A stretch of DNA of 15,569 nt, taken from contig JBHGAY010000050.1 in NCBI GenBank assembly GCA_041946735.1, positions 1 through 15,569 on the forward strand. The letters run 5' to 3'. Below, one piece after another: positions 367 through 9,137 of this stretch. Source of the DNA: Candidatus Eiseniibacteriota bacterium (GTDB lineage Bacteria > Eisenbacteria > RBG-16-71-46 > CAIMUX01 > VGJL01). A program made the translations under genes and the position numbers. The notes beneath the pieces are model-generated. The model saw nothing but the letters and a program-made list of their open reading frames with translations. It searched no databases and was not told where the DNA came from. Numbering within the stretch: the stretch's first letter is position 1; every line of letters begins with the position of its first letter.

Positions 367-1773
367 ATGGAGTATCCCTTCTGGGAAGTCCCGCTGCTCG
401 GCGGCGGGATGGTCATCGCGCTGATCGCGATCGTCCACGTCTTTGTCTCGCACTTCGCCGTCGGCGGCGGGCTCTTCCTCGTGCTGACCGAGCGGAAGGC
501 GCGCCGCGAGAAGAGCCCGGAGATCCTGCACTACGTCCGGTCGCACTCGCGTTTCTTCATCCTGTTGACGCTCGTCTTCGGAGCGATCACCGGCGTCGGG
601 ATCTGGTTCGCGATCGCGCTGGCCCATCCCGCAGGAACGAGCCTGCTGATCCACAACTTCGTCTTCGGATGGGCGATCGAGTGGTGCTTCTTCGTCGTCG
701 AGATCGCCGCCGCCCTCCTCTACTACTACGGCTGGGATCGACTCACCCCGCGGACGCACCTCGCGATCGGCTGGATCTACTTCGTCTCCGCCTACATGAG
801 CCTGGTCGTCATCAACGGCATCCTCTCCTTCATGCTGACCCCCGGCCGATGGCTGGAGCACGGCGGCTTCTGGAACGGCTTCTTCAATCCGAGCTACTTT
901 CCGTCGCTCCTGCTGCGCACCGGAGTGGCGCTTTCGCTGACCGGCCTGTACACCCTGCTGACCGCGTCGCTGGTCGCGCGCGAATCGACGCGCGGCAAGC
1001 TCGTCCGCTACGCGGCCAAATGGGTCTTCGCCGGCTTTGCGATCCTGCCGGTCGCCGGCCTGTTCTACCTGCTCACGATCGGCACCGATGCGCGCCACAT
1101 CGCCTTCGGCGGCGCGCCGCCGGTCGGTATCTTCCTCGGCCTCTCGCTCGGGATCTCCCTCTTCCTCCTCGTCTTCACCTGGCTTCTCGCCTGGCGCATG
1201 CCAGCCCGATTCTCCCCGGCCCTCGCGGCCCTCTTCCTCGTCGTCGGCTTCGTCGTCACGGCGACGTCCGAATGGGTGCGCGAGGCGGTGCGCAAGCCCT
1301 ACGTCGTCCACAGCACGATGTACTCCAACGGAATCCGGCCCGAGCAGGTCGCGTCGCTCGGCCGCACCGGATTGCTGCCCCACCTGAGGTGGGCTCGCGG
1401 GCAGGAGATCGGGACGCTGGGGCGGCGCGCCGCGGGCGAGGAGCTGTTCCGCTTCCAGTGCGCCTCCTGCCACACGATCGACGGCTACAACGGCATCCGT
1501 CCGCTGATCCGCGGATGGCGCGAGAGCTTCCTTGCCGAGCAGCTTCGCCACCTGGACGAGCTGAAGGGCTACATGCCGCCGTTCGCGGGGACGGACGAGG
1601 AGCGGCGCTGCCTCGCCCACTTCCTCGCCGGCCTCTGGGGCTTCCCGGCGGAGGATCAGCCGCTCCCGGTGATGGACGTGGCGCATAGCGACCCGCCGGG
1701 CTCGACGAACGCGGTCGAGGGCGCGGCGGTCGAAGGCGCGGCGGTCGAGAGCGCCGAGGAGGTGGAGCGATGA
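367..1773 (+). CDS. Cytochrome bd oxidase subunit I (CydA)-like membrane protein fused to a C-terminal monohaem cytochrome c
   Basis: GGGAGG SD upstream; about 9 hydrophobic segments; CydA-type motifs (helix-I His in IVHVFVSHF, WAIEWCFFVVE, EWVREAVRKPY resembling E..GRQPW); CASCH at 1459-1473 with a downstream YMPPF Met; no long Q-loop. Confidence 0.85.
   Translation: MEYPFWEVPLLGGGMVIALIAIVHVFVSHFAVGGGLFLVLTERKARREKSPEILHYVRSHSRFFILLTLVFGAITGVGIWFAIALAHPAGTSLLIHNFVFGWAIEWCFFVVEIAAALLYYYGWDRLTPRTHLAIGWIYFVSAYMSLVVINGILSFMLTPGRWLEHGGFWNGFFNPSYFPSLLLRTGVALSLTGLYTLLTASLVARESTRGKLVRYAAKWVFAGFAILPVAGLFYLLTIGTDARHIAFGGAPPVGIFLGLSLGISLFLLVFTWLLAWRMPARFSPALAALFLVVGFVVTATSEWVREAVRKPYVVHSTMYSNGIRPEQVASLGRTGLLPHLRWARGQEIGTLGRRAAGEELFRFQCASCHTIDGYNGIRPLIRGWRESFLAEQLRHLDELKGYMPPFAGTDEERRCLAHFLAGLWGFPAEDQPLPVMDVAHSDPPGSTNAVEGAAVEGAAVESAEEVER
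1711..1755 (+). repeat. In-frame 15-bp tandem repeat x3 (AVEGA/AVEGA/AVESA)
   Basis: GCGGTCGAGGGCGCG, GCGGTCGAAGGCGCG, GCGGTCGAGAGCGCC in the acidic C-terminal tail. Confidence 0.9.
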
Positions 1774-2912
1774 ACCCGGCCGTCCTGCCCCCGATCGACC
1801 CGCTGCCGCTGCCGGCTCCGGTCTGGATCTTCCGGGTCCTGCATCTGGTGACGTTTCTGCTGCACCTGCTCGCGATGAACCTGCTGCTCGGCGTCGGCAT
1901 CGTCACCGCGATCACCGCGGCGCGCGGGCGCCGCAACGCGCCGCACTGTCGGCGTCTCGCCGAGAAGCTGCACCCAATGCTCCCGGTCCTCACTGCCGCC
2001 ACCGTGACGCTCGGCGTCGCCGCGCTACTCTTCCTCCAGGTTCTCTTCGGCCGCTTCTTCTACACGTCGAGCATCCTGCTCGCAGTCCCGTGGTTCTCGA
2101 TCGTCTTCCTGCTGATCGCCGCCTACTACGGGCACTACTTCTCCGCGATGTCCGACACGGTGCGGCGCGAGCGGCGTGCCTGGATCGCCTGGGGCTCGGC
2201 CATCCTGATCCTGATCGTCGGCTTCATCTACACGAACAACTTGACCCTCCTGCAGACCCCCGAGCGCTTCCGCGACCTCTATCTGGCCGGACGGTCCGGC
2301 GTGCGCCTGAACTTCGGCGAGCCGACGCTGATCCCGCGCTTCCTGCACTTCCTGACCGCCGCCATCGCGGCGGCCGGGCTCGGGATCGTCGCCGTCGGAT
2401 GGAACACGATCCGGCGCGGCGAGGAGAACGAAGGGTTCGGGGCGTGGACGGTCCGCTACGGACGCAAATGGTTCCTCGGCGCGACCGCCGTCCAGCTCGT
2501 GATCGGCCTCTGGTTCCTTTTCAGCATCCCCGAGCAGGTCCGCGGCCTCTTCCTCGGCGGCGACCCGGTGCGCACCGGCCATCTCTTCGTGGCCGTCTTC
2601 CTCGCGCTCGCGGCGGTCGCGCTGCTCGCGGCGAAGCCCGAATCGGGCCGGATCGTCCTCGCCTCGGCCGGACTGCTGGCGCTCGCCATCCTCGGGATGG
2701 TCCTCGTGCGGAGCTGGGTGCGCGACGCGATGCTCGGTCCTTCGGCCGGGCTCGGAGAGCTGACCGTGCAGCCGCAGTGGGAGGTGCTCGCGATCTTCCT
2801 CGTGCTCTTCCTCGGCGCGCTCGCGACCCTCGGCTGGATGATCCGTCGCTTCCTCAAGGAAGGGAAGCGCGTGAGCCGTCGCGAGCCGGGAAGGCTGAAC
2901 CTCGTATCGTAG
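1770..2912 (+). CDS. Polytopic membrane protein, probable second (CydA-paralogous) subunit of the bd-like complex
   Basis: ATGA overlap with the upstream stop; GGAG SD; about 9 TM segments; His motifs LHLVTFLLHLL and PRFLHF resembling CydA haem-ligand helices. Confidence 0.75.
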   Translation: MNPAVLPPIDPLPLPAPVWIFRVLHLVTFLLHLLAMNLLLGVGIVTAITAARGRRNAPHCRRLAEKLHPMLPVLTAATVTLGVAALLFLQVLFGRFFYTSSILLAVPWFSIVFLLIAAYYGHYFSAMSDTVRRERRAWIAWGSAILILIVGFIYTNNLTLLQTPERFRDLYLAGRSGVRLNFGEPTLIPRFLHFLTAAIAAAGLGIVAVGWNTIRRGEENEGFGAWTVRYGRKWFLGATAVQLVIGLWFLFSIPEQVRGLFLGGDPVRTGHLFVAVFLALAAVALLAAKPESGRIVLASAGLLALAILGMVLVRSWVRDAMLGPSAGLGELTVQPQWEVLAIFLVLFLGALATLGWMIRRFLKEGKRVSRREPGRLNLVS

Positions 2913-4237: not shown

Positions 4238-4753
4238 ACGACCTCCAGGCCGCACTGTCACACGCTTCGAACAGACGGACGATCTGCCGCCGGTCAATTG
4301 TCACCTGCTACAGAGCCCCACCTGATCTCCTCCCGGCAAGGTGCAGCATGTTCCAGAGTCCCAGCAGCAGTTCGGGCGGCGTGTTGTGACGTGTCACGGG
4401 GTGCCGGGGGCAGTTCGGGCGGCGTGTTGTGACGTTTCACGGGGTGCCGGGGGCAGTTCGGGCGGCATGCTGTGACGTGTTACGCGGTGCCGAGGGCAGT
4501 TCGGGCGGCGTGTTGTGACGTGTTACGGAGTGCCGGGGGCAGTTCGGGCGGCATGCTGCAGCACGTTCCAGTGTCCCACCCGCAGATCGGACGGCAGTTT
4601 GGCGCATGTCGCAGGTTCCCACCGGCAGATCCGGCGGCGTGCTGCGACGTGCTACAACCCGCCGGGAGAGGATCCCGCGGCTCCCTGCAGCGGGTGGCAA
4701 TGCCCCGCCGGCAGATCGGGCGACGGCTTGTAACGGATCGCGGGCAAAACCGG
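4238..4753. repeat. Non-coding 43-bp tandem array, about 11-12 units, conserved centre and degenerate edges
   Basis: Unit starts at exact 43-bp steps: (4238), 4281, 4324, 4367, 4410, 4453, 4496, 4539, 4582, 4625, 4668, 4711. Central unit GCAGTTCGGGCGGCGTGTTGTGACGTGTCACGGGGTGCCGGGG. The unit at 4238 is supported mainly by an in-register TGTCAC. Confidence 0.9.
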
Positions 4754-5649: not shown

Positions 5650-6291
5650 ATGCGGATCGGAATTCTCGGAACCGGCGAGGTCGGCAAGACGATTGCGAAG
5701 GGGCTTGCGGGCCGCGGACACGAGGTCCGGATCGGCTCTCGAGATGTCCGCAAGCTCGACGACTGGCTTCCCGAAGCGGGCCCGCGGGTGCAGGCAGCGA
5801 GCTTCGCCGATGCGGCATCGTTCGCCGAGGTCGCGATTCTCGCGACCCTCTGGAGCGGCACCGAGAACGCGCTCCGCCTCGCCGGGCACGAGAACCTCGC
5901 GGGCAAGGTCGTGATCGACACGACGAATCCGCTCGTCTTCCACTCCGACGGCCCGCCGACCCTCGCGCTCGGCTTCGACGACTCGGCGGGCGAGCAGGTG
6001 CAGCGGTGGCTGCCGGCGTCCCGCGTGGTCAAGTGCTTCAACATTACCGGCAACCGGAACATGGTCGATCCGACGTTCCCGGACGGGCAGCCGGACATGT
6101 GGATCTGCGGCAACGACTCGGCCGCGAAAGAGACGGTCTCCGGCATCTGCCGCGAGCTCGGATGGCCGCCGGTCGTCGATTGCGGCGGGATCGAGGGAGC
6201 GAGACTGCTCGAGCCGCTCGCGATGCTCTGGATCGACTACGGCATCCGCCACGGGAGCTGGACGCACGCGTTCAAGCTGCTGCGTAAGTGA
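5650..6291 (+). CDS. NAD(P)-binding oxidoreductase, F420_oxidored family (NADPH-dependent F420 reductase-like)
   Basis: AGGAGAGGAG SD; Rossmann GILGTGEVG; family motifs KVVIDTTNP, SAGEQVQ, VVKCFN, CGND, ARLLEP. Confidence 0.85.
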   Translation: MRIGILGTGEVGKTIAKGLAGRGHEVRIGSRDVRKLDDWLPEAGPRVQAASFADAASFAEVAILATLWSGTENALRLAGHENLAGKVVIDTTNPLVFHSDGPPTLALGFDDSAGEQVQRWLPASRVVKCFNITGNRNMVDPTFPDGQPDMWICGNDSAAKETVSGICRELGWPPVVDCGGIEGARLLEPLAMLWIDYGIRHGSWTHAFKLLRK

Positions 6292-6398
6292 GCGTCCGAG
6301 AGCGAGCAGCCCGAGGATCGTACGGTGAGATTCGGGCGCGGGTTTCCAGGTTCCTGCACGTTTACGATCGAGATTGTTTGGGAGCGGCACATCGCGGC

Positions 6399-6407
6399 TG
6401 CTACGAT
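6399..6407 (+). promoter_or_regulatory. Extended -10 promoter candidate for the leader-carbonic anhydrase transcript
   Basis: TGcTACGAT; predicts a start at about 6414-6415, only 3-4 nt before ATG 6418. Confidence 0.55.
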
Positions 6408-6417
6408 CCGACTCACG

Positions 6418-6495
6418 ATGCAACCCGATCCGCGGCACTTCTCCTGTTGTTGTTGTCCTCGGTCCGACAGGATCGAGGGCGGAGCGGGCTCGTGA
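6418..6495 (+). CDS. Putative polycysteine leader peptide [25 protein letters not shown] (25 aa)
   Basis: ATG 6418 to TGA 6493-6495; four consecutive TGT codons at 6445-6456; no SD, directly downstream of an extended -10; overlaps alternative RNA pairings. Confidence 0.65.
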
Positions 6496-6533
6496 TGGAA
6501 ACCCCCTGACGAAGGGGAATCTATGGAATCAGC

Positions 6534-6567
6534 GAGACCCACCGCCCCACCGGCGGTGGGTTTTCTG
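6534..6567 (+). terminator. Attenuator-type intrinsic terminator in the carbonic anhydrase 5' leader
   Basis: Stem CCCACCGCC (6538-6546) / GGCGGTGGG (6552-6560), loop CCACC, followed by TTTTCTG; about 240 nt after the upstream stop and about 70 nt before ATG 6638. Confidence 0.7.
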
Positions 6568-6637
6568 CATGCGGTCGGCGGGCTCGAGCGAGCCTCGGCT
6601 GTCGAGGAGCCCGGCGGCCCGGAGAGAGGAGACGGAG

Positions 6638-7219
6638 ATGAGCAAGGTCCTCGAAGAGGTTCTTCAGGCGAACACGGTCTATGTCGAGCAGTTCGGCGAA
6701 CGTGGCAACCTCGCGATGCCTCCGGCGAGGAAGATCGCAATCTTGACGTGCATGGATGCCCGCCTAGACCCGGCGAAGTATGCCGGTCTGGCCGAGGGGG
6801 ACGCCCACGTGATCCGCAACGCCGGCGGACGGGCGAGCGACGATGCGATCCGCTCGCTCGTGATCTCGCACAAGCTGCTCGGCACGCGGGAGTGGTTCGT
6901 GATCCATCACACCGGATGCGGAATGACGCTCTTCACCGAGGAGGTGATGGGAGAGCTGCTGGCGGAGAGCCTCGCGACCGCGACATTCGACGGGAAGGAG
7001 TGGAGGAACACACACAACGGCGGCGGATCGCCCGAGGGACGCTACATCCATTGGCTGACGATCGCCGACCAGAACCGGGCGGTCGTCGAGGACATCACGC
7101 GGATTCGCGAGCATCCTCTCGTTCCGGCAGACATTGCGATCCACGGGTTCCTCTATGACGTGCGGACCGGAAGGCTGCAGGCGGTTCCGGGAGCGGCGGA
7201 AGCAGGCCGGCCGGTCTAG
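6638..7219 (+). CDS. Beta-class carbonic anhydrase, clade D (Rv1284-like; clade includes COS/CS2 hydrolases), 193 aa
   Basis: Start reassigned to ATG 6638 after a GAGGAG SD; Zn ligands CMDAR (CxDxR) and HHTGCG (HxxC); [16 protein letters not shown]. Confidence 0.9.
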
Positions 7220-7934: not shown

Positions 7935-9022
7935 CTACGACGACCAGCGCTCGTAGGCGCCCGGAGCCGGGCCTCGATGATGCCCGGAGAGCACGATCCG
8001 CTCCGGCTTGACGAGCGAGTAGCCGCATTGCTGGCAGAGGGGAAGCGACCGGCTGAGAATCCCGCGCCGCAATGCACGGTAGCGCGCGCCGCGCCACACC
8101 GGCAGGAAGCCTCCGTCGCGAAAGGCGTTGCCCGCGACGTGGCGGCCATCGTAGTCGAAGCAGCAGATCACCACGTCGCCGTTGTACAAGACGGTCGACT
8201 GGAACGCCCAGTTGCAGATGCCGGGGCGGCGCAGCCGGTACCCCTCGCCACGCCGCTTGTACTGCACGACGGGGCTCTCGATCGGGAGAAACGCCTCGAG
8301 CAGCCTCGCGTGGTCCGCCTGGAAGAAGTCGTTCACGATGACCGGCACGAACGACACCTCATCGACGCCGAAGTCCCGGGCGATCTCGAGAATCCGGGGA
8401 ACCTCCGACTCGTTCTGCCTCATCACGACGAACTGGAGAATCACGCGCGGCGCCGAGCCGTTCGCGCGGACTCGCTCCCGCATCAGAACGTCCAGATTGT
8501 GCAGCACGCGGTCGAAGGCGGCTCCCCTCCTGTAATGAGCAAGGGTCTCGGTCGAGGCGCCGTCGAGGGCGAAGAGGACTTCATCCGGACGCGCGTCGAG
8601 TAGGGCACGGGCCTTGTCGATCGTCCCGTTCGTGCCGAGCGTCACCGAGATGCCGCTCTCTCCGACGCGAAGCGCACCATCTCCACGATCTGCGGATGGA
8701 GAAGCGTCTCGCCGGCGAAGTTCATCAGGATGCGTGAGACGAACGGGGAGACCTCGCGAATCAGCTTTCGGTACGGCTCAATTTCCATGTAGCCACGCGG
8801 GCGGGTCATGACGCCGGCCCCCACGGGACAGAGCGGGCAGTGCAGGTTGCACGCGTTCGTCGCCTCGATCATCAGGAGCCGCGGCGGCCGGCGCTCGAGG
8901 AGGTGCAGCGGCAGACATCGCAGGATCTGCCGCCGGGGAGCGGACGGCGTGCGAGAGAGAATGTGATTCAGGGAGTGGAAGCCAGCGCGAGTCACAGCAT
9001 GGGTAATCGATGGGAGGCTCAT
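7935..9022 (-). pseudogene. Radical SAM protein with C-terminal SPASM/twitch domain, split by a frameshift (real or sequencing error)
   Basis: ATG 9022 with GGAG SD; CNLHCPLC in the 5' frame; TNG, ALDG and C…GDVVICC…CQQC in the 3' frame; frame change near CTCTCTC 8656-8662. Confidence 0.8.
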
Positions 9023-9086
9023 TCGTGCTCCGTTCGGATCGTTTGCGTGTTCGATCGCTATTCGGTTGCGTCGGTTGACCGCCGTC

Positions 9087-9095
9087 GAGTGTACC
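9087..9095 (-). promoter_or_regulatory. Extended -10 promoter candidate for the radical SAM gene
   Basis: Minus-strand TGgTACACT about 65 nt upstream of ATG 9022. Confidence 0.45.
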
Positions 9096-9137
9096 ACGTC
9101 CACCGCACGTCGCCGTACGGAGAATCGGCCGGCGAGA

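Follow-up and report, generated by a model that had tools for sequence, protein, structure and literature searches.

The window, a 15,569-nucleotide stretch of a Candidatus Eiseniibacteriota genome (G000), carries a clade D beta-carbonic anhydrase (CA) gene behind a short leader open reading frame with a run of cysteine codons and an intrinsic terminator. On balance we favour the reading that this enzyme is induced by cysteine starvation and supplies sulfide by way of carbonyl sulfide (COS). Each of the three components, enzyme family, reaction and switch type, is known or predicted from other systems; the literature searched yielded no case in which they are repeatedly coupled. The features concerned are:

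6402..6407, plus strand: possible -10 hexamer TACGAT, inferred from sequence, 10 nt before the leader ATG
6418..6495, plus strand: leader ORF of 25 codons with four consecutive Cys codons, from the translation; counterparts in G003, G004, G136 and G079
6445..6456, plus strand: putative sensor codons, four TGT (Cys), from the sequence
6476..6492, plus strand: antiterminator strand in the last leader codons, pairing with the 5' arm of the terminator in constrained folding
6536..6566, plus strand: intrinsic terminator, 11-bp stem, -21.7 kcal/mol, short U tract; near-identical hairpin in G003
6627..6631, plus strand: Shine-Dalgarno-like AGGAG of the CA gene, from the sequence
6638..7219, plus strand: clade D (Cab-type) beta-CA family protein of 193 aa, a candidate COS hydrolase

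The three clade-D-type motifs named in the first-pass annotation are all present, TCMDARL at residues 37-43, IRNAGG at 59-64 and HHTGCG at 90-95, and both PDB matches and fold scores are Cab-type. The protein has the Cys-x-Asp-x-Arg plus His-x-x-Cys zinc site of beta-CAs; across 66 aligned sequences neither the ligands C38, H91 and C94 nor the D40/R42 dyad varies. It matches Pfam Pro_CA above cut-off (E 3.7e-12); NCBIfam returned only a CA model below its cut-off. All nine matches in a PDB sequence search are Cab-type or clade D-like, led by 5ZTP (3.6e-39) and then 3LAS, CafC (6JQC) and Rv1284 (1YLK), with the COS hydrolase 3VQJ sixth (2.1e-29), the CS2 hydrolase 3TEN seventh (1.7e-24) and Cab (1G5C) and 6Y04 following. 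A single-sequence fold (pLDDT 42.6) was replaced by a model built from the 66-sequence alignment (pLDDT 96.4). This predicted structure reaches Z 20.3-21.7 with 3LAS, CafC, Rv1284 and 5ZTP; for the COS and CS2 hydrolases the range is 17.2-17.9, and other beta-CAs score no higher than 15.0. Sequence and fold alike place the enzyme nearer to the Cab type than to the plant-type/Can group (Z 17.2-21.7 versus at most 15.0). As far as the residues tell, the motifs form an intact beta-CA active site; they do not indicate the substrate.

The enzyme belongs to a widespread subfamily marked by an insertion of roughly 15-19 residues around 113-137; when the subfamily was searched, every one of the 8000 candidates scored passed E 1e-10. 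It is the sole PF00484 (beta-CA) gene found in G000, a genome 94.8% complete in which a search for alpha-CAs gave none and two gamma-CA/PaaY-like genes are present. Its neighbours encode an F420-dependent oxidoreductase and a DinB protein, and the neighbours of its relatives differ. Elsewhere in the window, 367-2912 (plus strand) holds a membrane protein resembling cytochrome bd subunit I that carries a cytochrome c at its C terminus, followed by a 380-aa membrane protein with no Pfam match, and an array of a repeat of about 43 nt (4291-4687; 8 copies in register, 64-81% identical to the reference) lies between an AurF-like gene and the gene of a small exported protein. A radical SAM/SPASM protein (7935-9103, minus strand) is spread over two ORFs with a 4-nt overlap, and the break lies within the radical SAM domain; a frameshift, a pseudogene or an assembly error are the alternatives.

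The leader is very probably a real attenuator. Of the elements of a classical attenuator, the ORF with sensor codons is present, and a terminator with a competing antiterminator appears in predicted folding. With scarce Cys-tRNA, a ribosome would stall on the TGT run, the antiterminator would form and the CA gene would be transcribed; with ample cysteine, the ribosome would reach the stop codon and mask the antiterminator strand, and transcription would end near 6566. We think it very likely that such a Cys-tRNA-dependent stalling switch controls the gene. In constrained folding the terminator 5' arm is sequestered with a mean probability of 0.82 when the ribosome sits on the Cys codons, 0.48 when it is at the stop and 0.24 when there is none. 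Because less masking by the ribosome itself favours pairing, comparison with shuffled sequences is a fairer test than that of stalled and stop states, and here the antiterminator duplex reaches -19.7 kcal/mol versus -13.4 for shuffles (p 0.037). TGT makes up 7.5% of Cys codons in the 1718 long genes of G000, and the main Cys runs of 16 CA leaders hold 38 TGT versus 16 TGC.

No Shine-Dalgarno sequence was seen before the window leader ATG, so the leader ORF may be nearly leaderless; a consensus promoter scan found no full sigma-70 site there, and in G003 and G079 -35/-10-like hexamers were recognised by eye 7-9 nt before the leader ATG. Within G000 the arrangement is singular: three Cys codons followed by a terminator lie upstream of none of the 1704 long control genes and two Cys codons with a terminator upstream of two, both spurious-looking, and a genome-wide scan for at least three Cys codons plus terminator gave five candidates of which the CA leader alone is convincing. 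Three runs contain identical contigs: X2 from industrial waste, which covers nearly the whole stretch, X3 from a landfill and X4 from a rhizosphere; since the attenuator (6418-6566) is identical in the X2 and X4 contigs, it is not an assembly error. Rfam gave nothing significant on window positions 6250-6700 and only tRNAs on 20 leader loci, and NCBIfam has no family for the leader peptide.

The arrangement recurs in the phylum. Clade D matches (E 1e-25) were found in 7 of 206 phylum genomes, and five of these seven homologs (G000, G003, G004, G136 and G079) are preceded by a Cys leader with a U-tailed hairpin amid differing neighbours; the remaining two, G009 and G017 of one genus, have no Cys leader. 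Among the five, the G136 start codon is uncertain, and G079 combines a leader of only two Cys codons with a short-type enzyme 44.5% identical to the window CA. Constrained folding favours the antiterminator in all five when the ribosome is stalled (0.54-0.82 versus 0.04-0.48), and the duplex beats shuffles at p at most 0.05 in two, G000 and G004. The attenuator premise of the earlier annotation thus came through the tests run, the leader being conserved, as read from sequence, before homologs with unrelated neighbours. A strict leader pattern run over the 206 genomes matched only in G000 and G003, both times before the CA, so no wider regulon is demonstrable in this phylum.

Coupling of the same kind is found in Acidobacteriota. 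Four overlapping samples of 401, 61, 161 and 119 genomes, the third searched with a short-type query, contained a clade D CA in 76 genomes once the unpublished G670 and G688 had been excluded, both of which are included in the raw tally of 50/161 for the third sample. Leaders were judged by eye from script output, and weak cases with only two Cys codons and no clear terminator (for example G725, G726, G786, G790 and G677) were scored as no leader. On this basis 13 of the 76 genomes show leader coupling, 11 through direct leaders and 2 through operons; the 63 unled ones include G620, which has no upstream DNA, and G642, a fragment. For the insert-bearing subfamily to which the window enzyme belongs, 9 of 21 copies with upstream DNA are led. 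In the two operons (G414 and G821) a poly-Cys leader and terminator are followed by cysH, a NirA/Sir-type reductase gene and the CA, which starts 50 nt behind the reductase stop or overlaps it and whose product is 68% and 71% identical to the window CA.

In the leaders of G226, G634 and G206 the Cys run forms the end of the ORF and no intrinsic terminator follows; the U tract of G351 is weak. This second leader type, with the Cys run at the ORF end, was seen upstream of the CA at L294, L317 and L318, where a conserved stretch after the leader folds into a hairpin, and at the cysM-like genes of L360 and L362, where the leader may overlap the gene start. G206 is labelled Heliobacteriaceae, but G226 belongs both to its family and to the Acidobacteriota sample. 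In both G226 and G206 a poly-Cys leader precedes the CA as well as a cysM-like operon. Outside the Cys run, leader residues are not conserved. Led enzymes occupy at least three separate places (starred branches) in trees that were quick searches with many open forks and with L315 standing in for the COSase, and parsimony counts 7-9 changes. As at least three changes are needed, the coupling is not a single recent event.

A metagenome search looked for three Cys codons, a gap and a window-like terminator, leaving reading frame and downstream gene free. It returned at least 120 loci, and in 118 of the 120 listed an in-frame stop shortly before the terminator closes a short Cys-rich ORF whose last 30 codons include 4 or more Cys (median 8). 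After removal of L107, L157, L170, L203 and L221, the downstream ORFs of the listed loci clustered into 72 sulfite reductase-like, 8 sulfurtransferase, 7 CysD, 3 CysK, 2 SsuA-like and others; CysH and ThiS genes are found behind such leaders as well. Predicted folding sequesters the arm above 0.5 in 114 of 115 scored leaders among those listed when the ribosome is stalled and in 1 of 115 when it is at the stop, and the duplex beats shuffles at p below 0.05 in 46 of the 115. L103-L222 make up a family of poly-Cys attenuators of transcription that lie ahead of sulfur-assimilation genes and have no Rfam match; at L110 the attenuator heads a ThiS-led operon and at L177 it precedes the gene of a 150-aa membrane protein without a name. 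Among the matches listed, no leader is followed by a CA as its first gene; at L103 a CA of the window subfamily lies in an operon divergent from a leader-sir unit. From these observations it appears likely that the window CA belongs to a cysteine-supply regulon.

The visible link between CA and sulfur genes is confined to two phyla. Among the best 80 GTDB loci, mostly Pseudomonadota, one has a poly-Cys leader and 79 have none, and a sulfur gene lies within the fetched flanks of 4 of 114 CA loci, one of them chosen by the leader pattern. The sulfur context expected of homologs was borne out in part: two of them end Cys-attenuated cysH-sir operons, and most proteobacterial ones show none. Unled groups may use protein regulators. 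A divergent LysR-type regulator gene adjoins the CA in 16 GTDB loci (for example L100:3916-4818), mostly from Methylococcales, and could be such a regulator in lineages without the leader.

The sulfur metabolism of the genome fits this placement. PF01507, PF01077 and CysH gave no match in G000, while control genomes match; a CysK above cut-off is encoded immediately downstream of a CysE-like gene that scores below cut-off, and G000 also has a CBS-like/CGL-like pair. With these genes and no detected sulfate reduction, the organism can use sulfide, but producing it from sulfate seems beyond its reach. No such leader precedes the cysE-cysK operon of G000. The start of this operon is overlapped by a gene (G000:C23:97780-100502, minus strand) that we take, from its motif, to encode a metallo-beta-lactamase fold, and in G003 and G004 such a gene likewise lies ahead of the cysE-like gene (L323; L340). 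Thiocyanate hydrolase (PF02979), considered as a COS source, gave no match in G000, nor in any control genome.

CysH is absent from 15 of the 16 genomes with a directly led CA. Within Acidobacteriota it occurs in 1/11 directly led versus 41/63 unled genomes (p 7e-4) and, for the window subfamily, in 1/7 versus 12/12 (p 3e-4), p values that overstate the contrast because the genomes are related and incomplete and kin are not independent. Inside the G436 family the contrast, 1/6 versus 22/42, falls short of significance (p 0.19). One class contains both forms, with CysH present in the operon-bearing G414 and G821 and absent from G863 and G867 with their direct leaders. In the phylum of the window CysH is found in 5 of 125 genomes and both unled genomes also lack it, which makes the contrast uninformative there. 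Of the 16 led genomes 10 were tested for a cysKM-type gene, and all 10 have one, in nine above cut-off; in G079 the cysKM match falls under the cut-off and there is no CysE-like gene. Since the coupling occurs mainly in bacteria without the usual sulfate pathway, the enzyme probably supplies sulfide.

In the reading that we lean towards, the zinc-bound hydroxide would split COS into H2S and CO2, and cysteine would be made from the H2S by the CysE/CysK pair. In its accessible text, PMC12035519 describes fungal clade D COSases with kcat of 35 and 135 per s and Km of 300 and 634 uM, minimal CO2 activity and some CS2 turnover, and it holds that sequence cannot yet separate COS-preferring from CO2-active clade D enzymes; Rv1284 is given there as CO2-active and CafC as having very low CO2 activity. 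The available part of PMC10880591 reports growth with COS as sole sulfur source and an approximately tenfold improvement of E. coli growth by a fungal COSase, and calls the role of COS degradation in heterotrophic bacteria unknown. CO2-active Rv1284 matches the window CA as well as CafC does, and better than the COSase.

The COS/CS2 hydrolase assignment of the first-pass annotation has kept its sulfur link, through the leaders, the cysH-sir operons and the led copies mostly in CysH-less genomes; its CS2 half is disfavoured. An FF pair after the RS helix motif marks CS2 hydrolases, and those of the Acidianus type assemble into rings or catenanes. The FF pair of 3TEN aligns to L80-L81 of the window CA, the position is LL in 111 and FF in none of 117 scored loci, and identity as a CS2 hydrolase is unlikely on this sequence comparison. 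Orthology with the Thiobacillus COSase was rejected because the window CA is 35% identical to L315 and, in the alignment, lacks the extra loop (Gly150-Pro158) by which the tunnel is narrowed. L315 itself (G242:C15:41201-41767, Acidobacteriota) is a close ortholog of the T. thioparus COSase (E 3.7e-113 to 3VQJ) and has no Cys leader. As fungal COSases also lack the Thiobacillus loop, its absence does not exclude COS activity.

Scavenging of COS from the atmosphere was rejected as the sulfur supply. Dissolved COS at air level amounts to 9 pM (500 ppt COS, solubility from the available text of PMC12035519). With assumed cell size, enzyme copies and diffusion constant, 1e3-1e5 enzymes would gain 1e2 to 7e4 S atoms per day versus about 2e7 per small cell, so that air is far too dilute for the demand and a local or internal source is needed. 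Under the COS reading the substrate would come from a locally enriched or intracellular source, and by this estimate dissolved COS would have to reach about 10 nM or more. Places of the industrial waste, landfill and rhizosphere type can be richer in COS.

The regulatory and contextual evidence would fit equally well with a cysteine-regulon enzyme acting on another sulfur substrate, such as CS2, a thiocarbamate or similar adduct, or a salvage intermediate. The dilution of air COS, the CS2 turnover of COSases (PMC12035519, accessible text), the insert peculiar to the subfamily and the lack of a characterised member in the literature searched all speak for such a substrate; against it, the FF pair of CS2 hydrolases is LL in the window CA and 111 of 117 loci and FF in none, and COS is the only sulfur substrate shown to be assimilated via a clade D enzyme in the literature searched (PMC10880591, as far as available). 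We regard another substrate as improbable. Somewhat less probable still is an ordinary CO2 hydratase that is co-induced with sulfur genes to balance pH or bicarbonate during sulfur stress. Its nearest solved relatives do include CO2-active Rv1284, it is the only beta-CA of G000, and most homologs have no sulfur context. A housekeeping CA, however, would be switched off whenever cysteine is ample; 199 of 206 phylum genomes manage without a clade D match, G226, G634 and G206 retain a separate Can-type beta-CA elsewhere in the genome, and direct leaders are found mostly where no sulfate reduction needs buffering.

Two further explanations concern the leader, and we give each of them very little weight. 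It might be a relic, left when cysH and sir were deleted from a leader-cysH-sir-CA operon, with the CA remaining unselected. One class does hold the operon form (G414, G821) beside the direct form (G863, G867), and such a deletion alone could produce the CysH contrast; even so, the CA must still have been in a cysteine-regulated operon, and the leaders retain frame, Cys run and terminator pairing in diverged sequences across two phyla and two enzyme subtypes. Alternatively, the CCCC peptide might sense zinc, another metal or thiol oxidation and not the cysteine supply. Two cysteines of the enzyme are zinc ligands, Cys leaders that sense metals exist and a clade D enzyme is redox-labile, but leaders of this architecture also stand before cysK, cysD, cysH, sir and ssuA-like genes, and the leader is conserved only in its Cys run.

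Known systems resemble the window in parts. The fungal clade D COSases of Trichoderma harzianum THIF08 and Gloeophyllum trabeum (PMC8209446, PMC12035519 and PMC10880591, each in its accessible portion) share its zinc site and, in these texts, its proposed use of COS as a sulfur source; their activity is described there as constitutive, in contrast to an enzyme behind a cysteine attenuator. Neither they nor the window CA have the Thiobacillus-type extra loop, the short fungal enzymes lack the window insert, and the tunnel positions Met and Leu agree with the T. harzianum COSase but also with Rv1284. The COSase of T. thioparus THI115 (3VQJ, 3VRK) shares the clade D fold (Z 17.8-17.9, 36% over about 168 residues) but serves energy metabolism in a sulfur oxidiser, according to the available part of PMC10880591, and its ortholog L315 has loops absent from the window CA and forms a separate long branch. 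The Acidianus A1-3 CS2 hydrolase (3TEN) has the same fold as well (Z 17.4, 32% identity), with its FF replaced by LL here. The top sequence and fold scores (Z 18.2-21.7) belong to Cab-type CO2 hydratases and uncharacterised relatives, namely Rv1284 (1YLK), Cab (1G5C), 3LAS, 5ZTP and CafC (6JQC), for none of which cysteine attenuation is reported in the literature searched.

Cysteine leaders have been described in mycobacteria (10.1101/834739), in actinobacteria (PMC1262725) and as uORFC-8-2 before cysS of Rhodobacterales (PMC8632094). As the accessible texts present them, they are, like the window leader, short and nearly leaderless ORFs with tandem Cys codons and cysteine-related genes downstream, and for uORFC-8-2 an intrinsic terminator is predicted at the end, as here. 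The tested mycobacterial leader acts on translation, unlike the transcription attenuation proposed for the window, and the actinobacterial ones lack terminators. The word "anhydrase" does not occur in the main text of 10.1101/834739, its operon table (an image) excepted, nor in the available text of PMC8632094. In the literature searched, largely without subscription journals, no clade D CA was linked to cysteine attenuation, and no paper was found for a link of Rv1284 with cysD, which was not used as evidence. The Aspergillus CA genes of a metR study are presumably not of clade D. They are lowered in the metR mutant according to the available part of PMC3757043, a result likewise not used as evidence.

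More generally, clade D beta-CAs may repeatedly have come under the control of the bacterial cysteine-starvation regulon in the role of COS hydrolases, which would open a route from COS to sulfide for heterotrophs that lack sulfate reduction; we give this proposal slightly less than an even chance. PMC13098186, in its accessible portion, places the known COSases in a beta-D2 subclade and describes COS as a tracer of photosynthesis for which soil is a major sink, so that sulfur-dependent induction would matter for flux models. A cysteine attenuator before a CA offers a genomic marker that names COSase candidates. If the proposal is true, the annotation of a large CA subfamily would be corrected, the degradation of COS by heterotrophic soil bacteria would have a physiological reason, and part of the soil COS sink would be controlled by microbial sulfur status.
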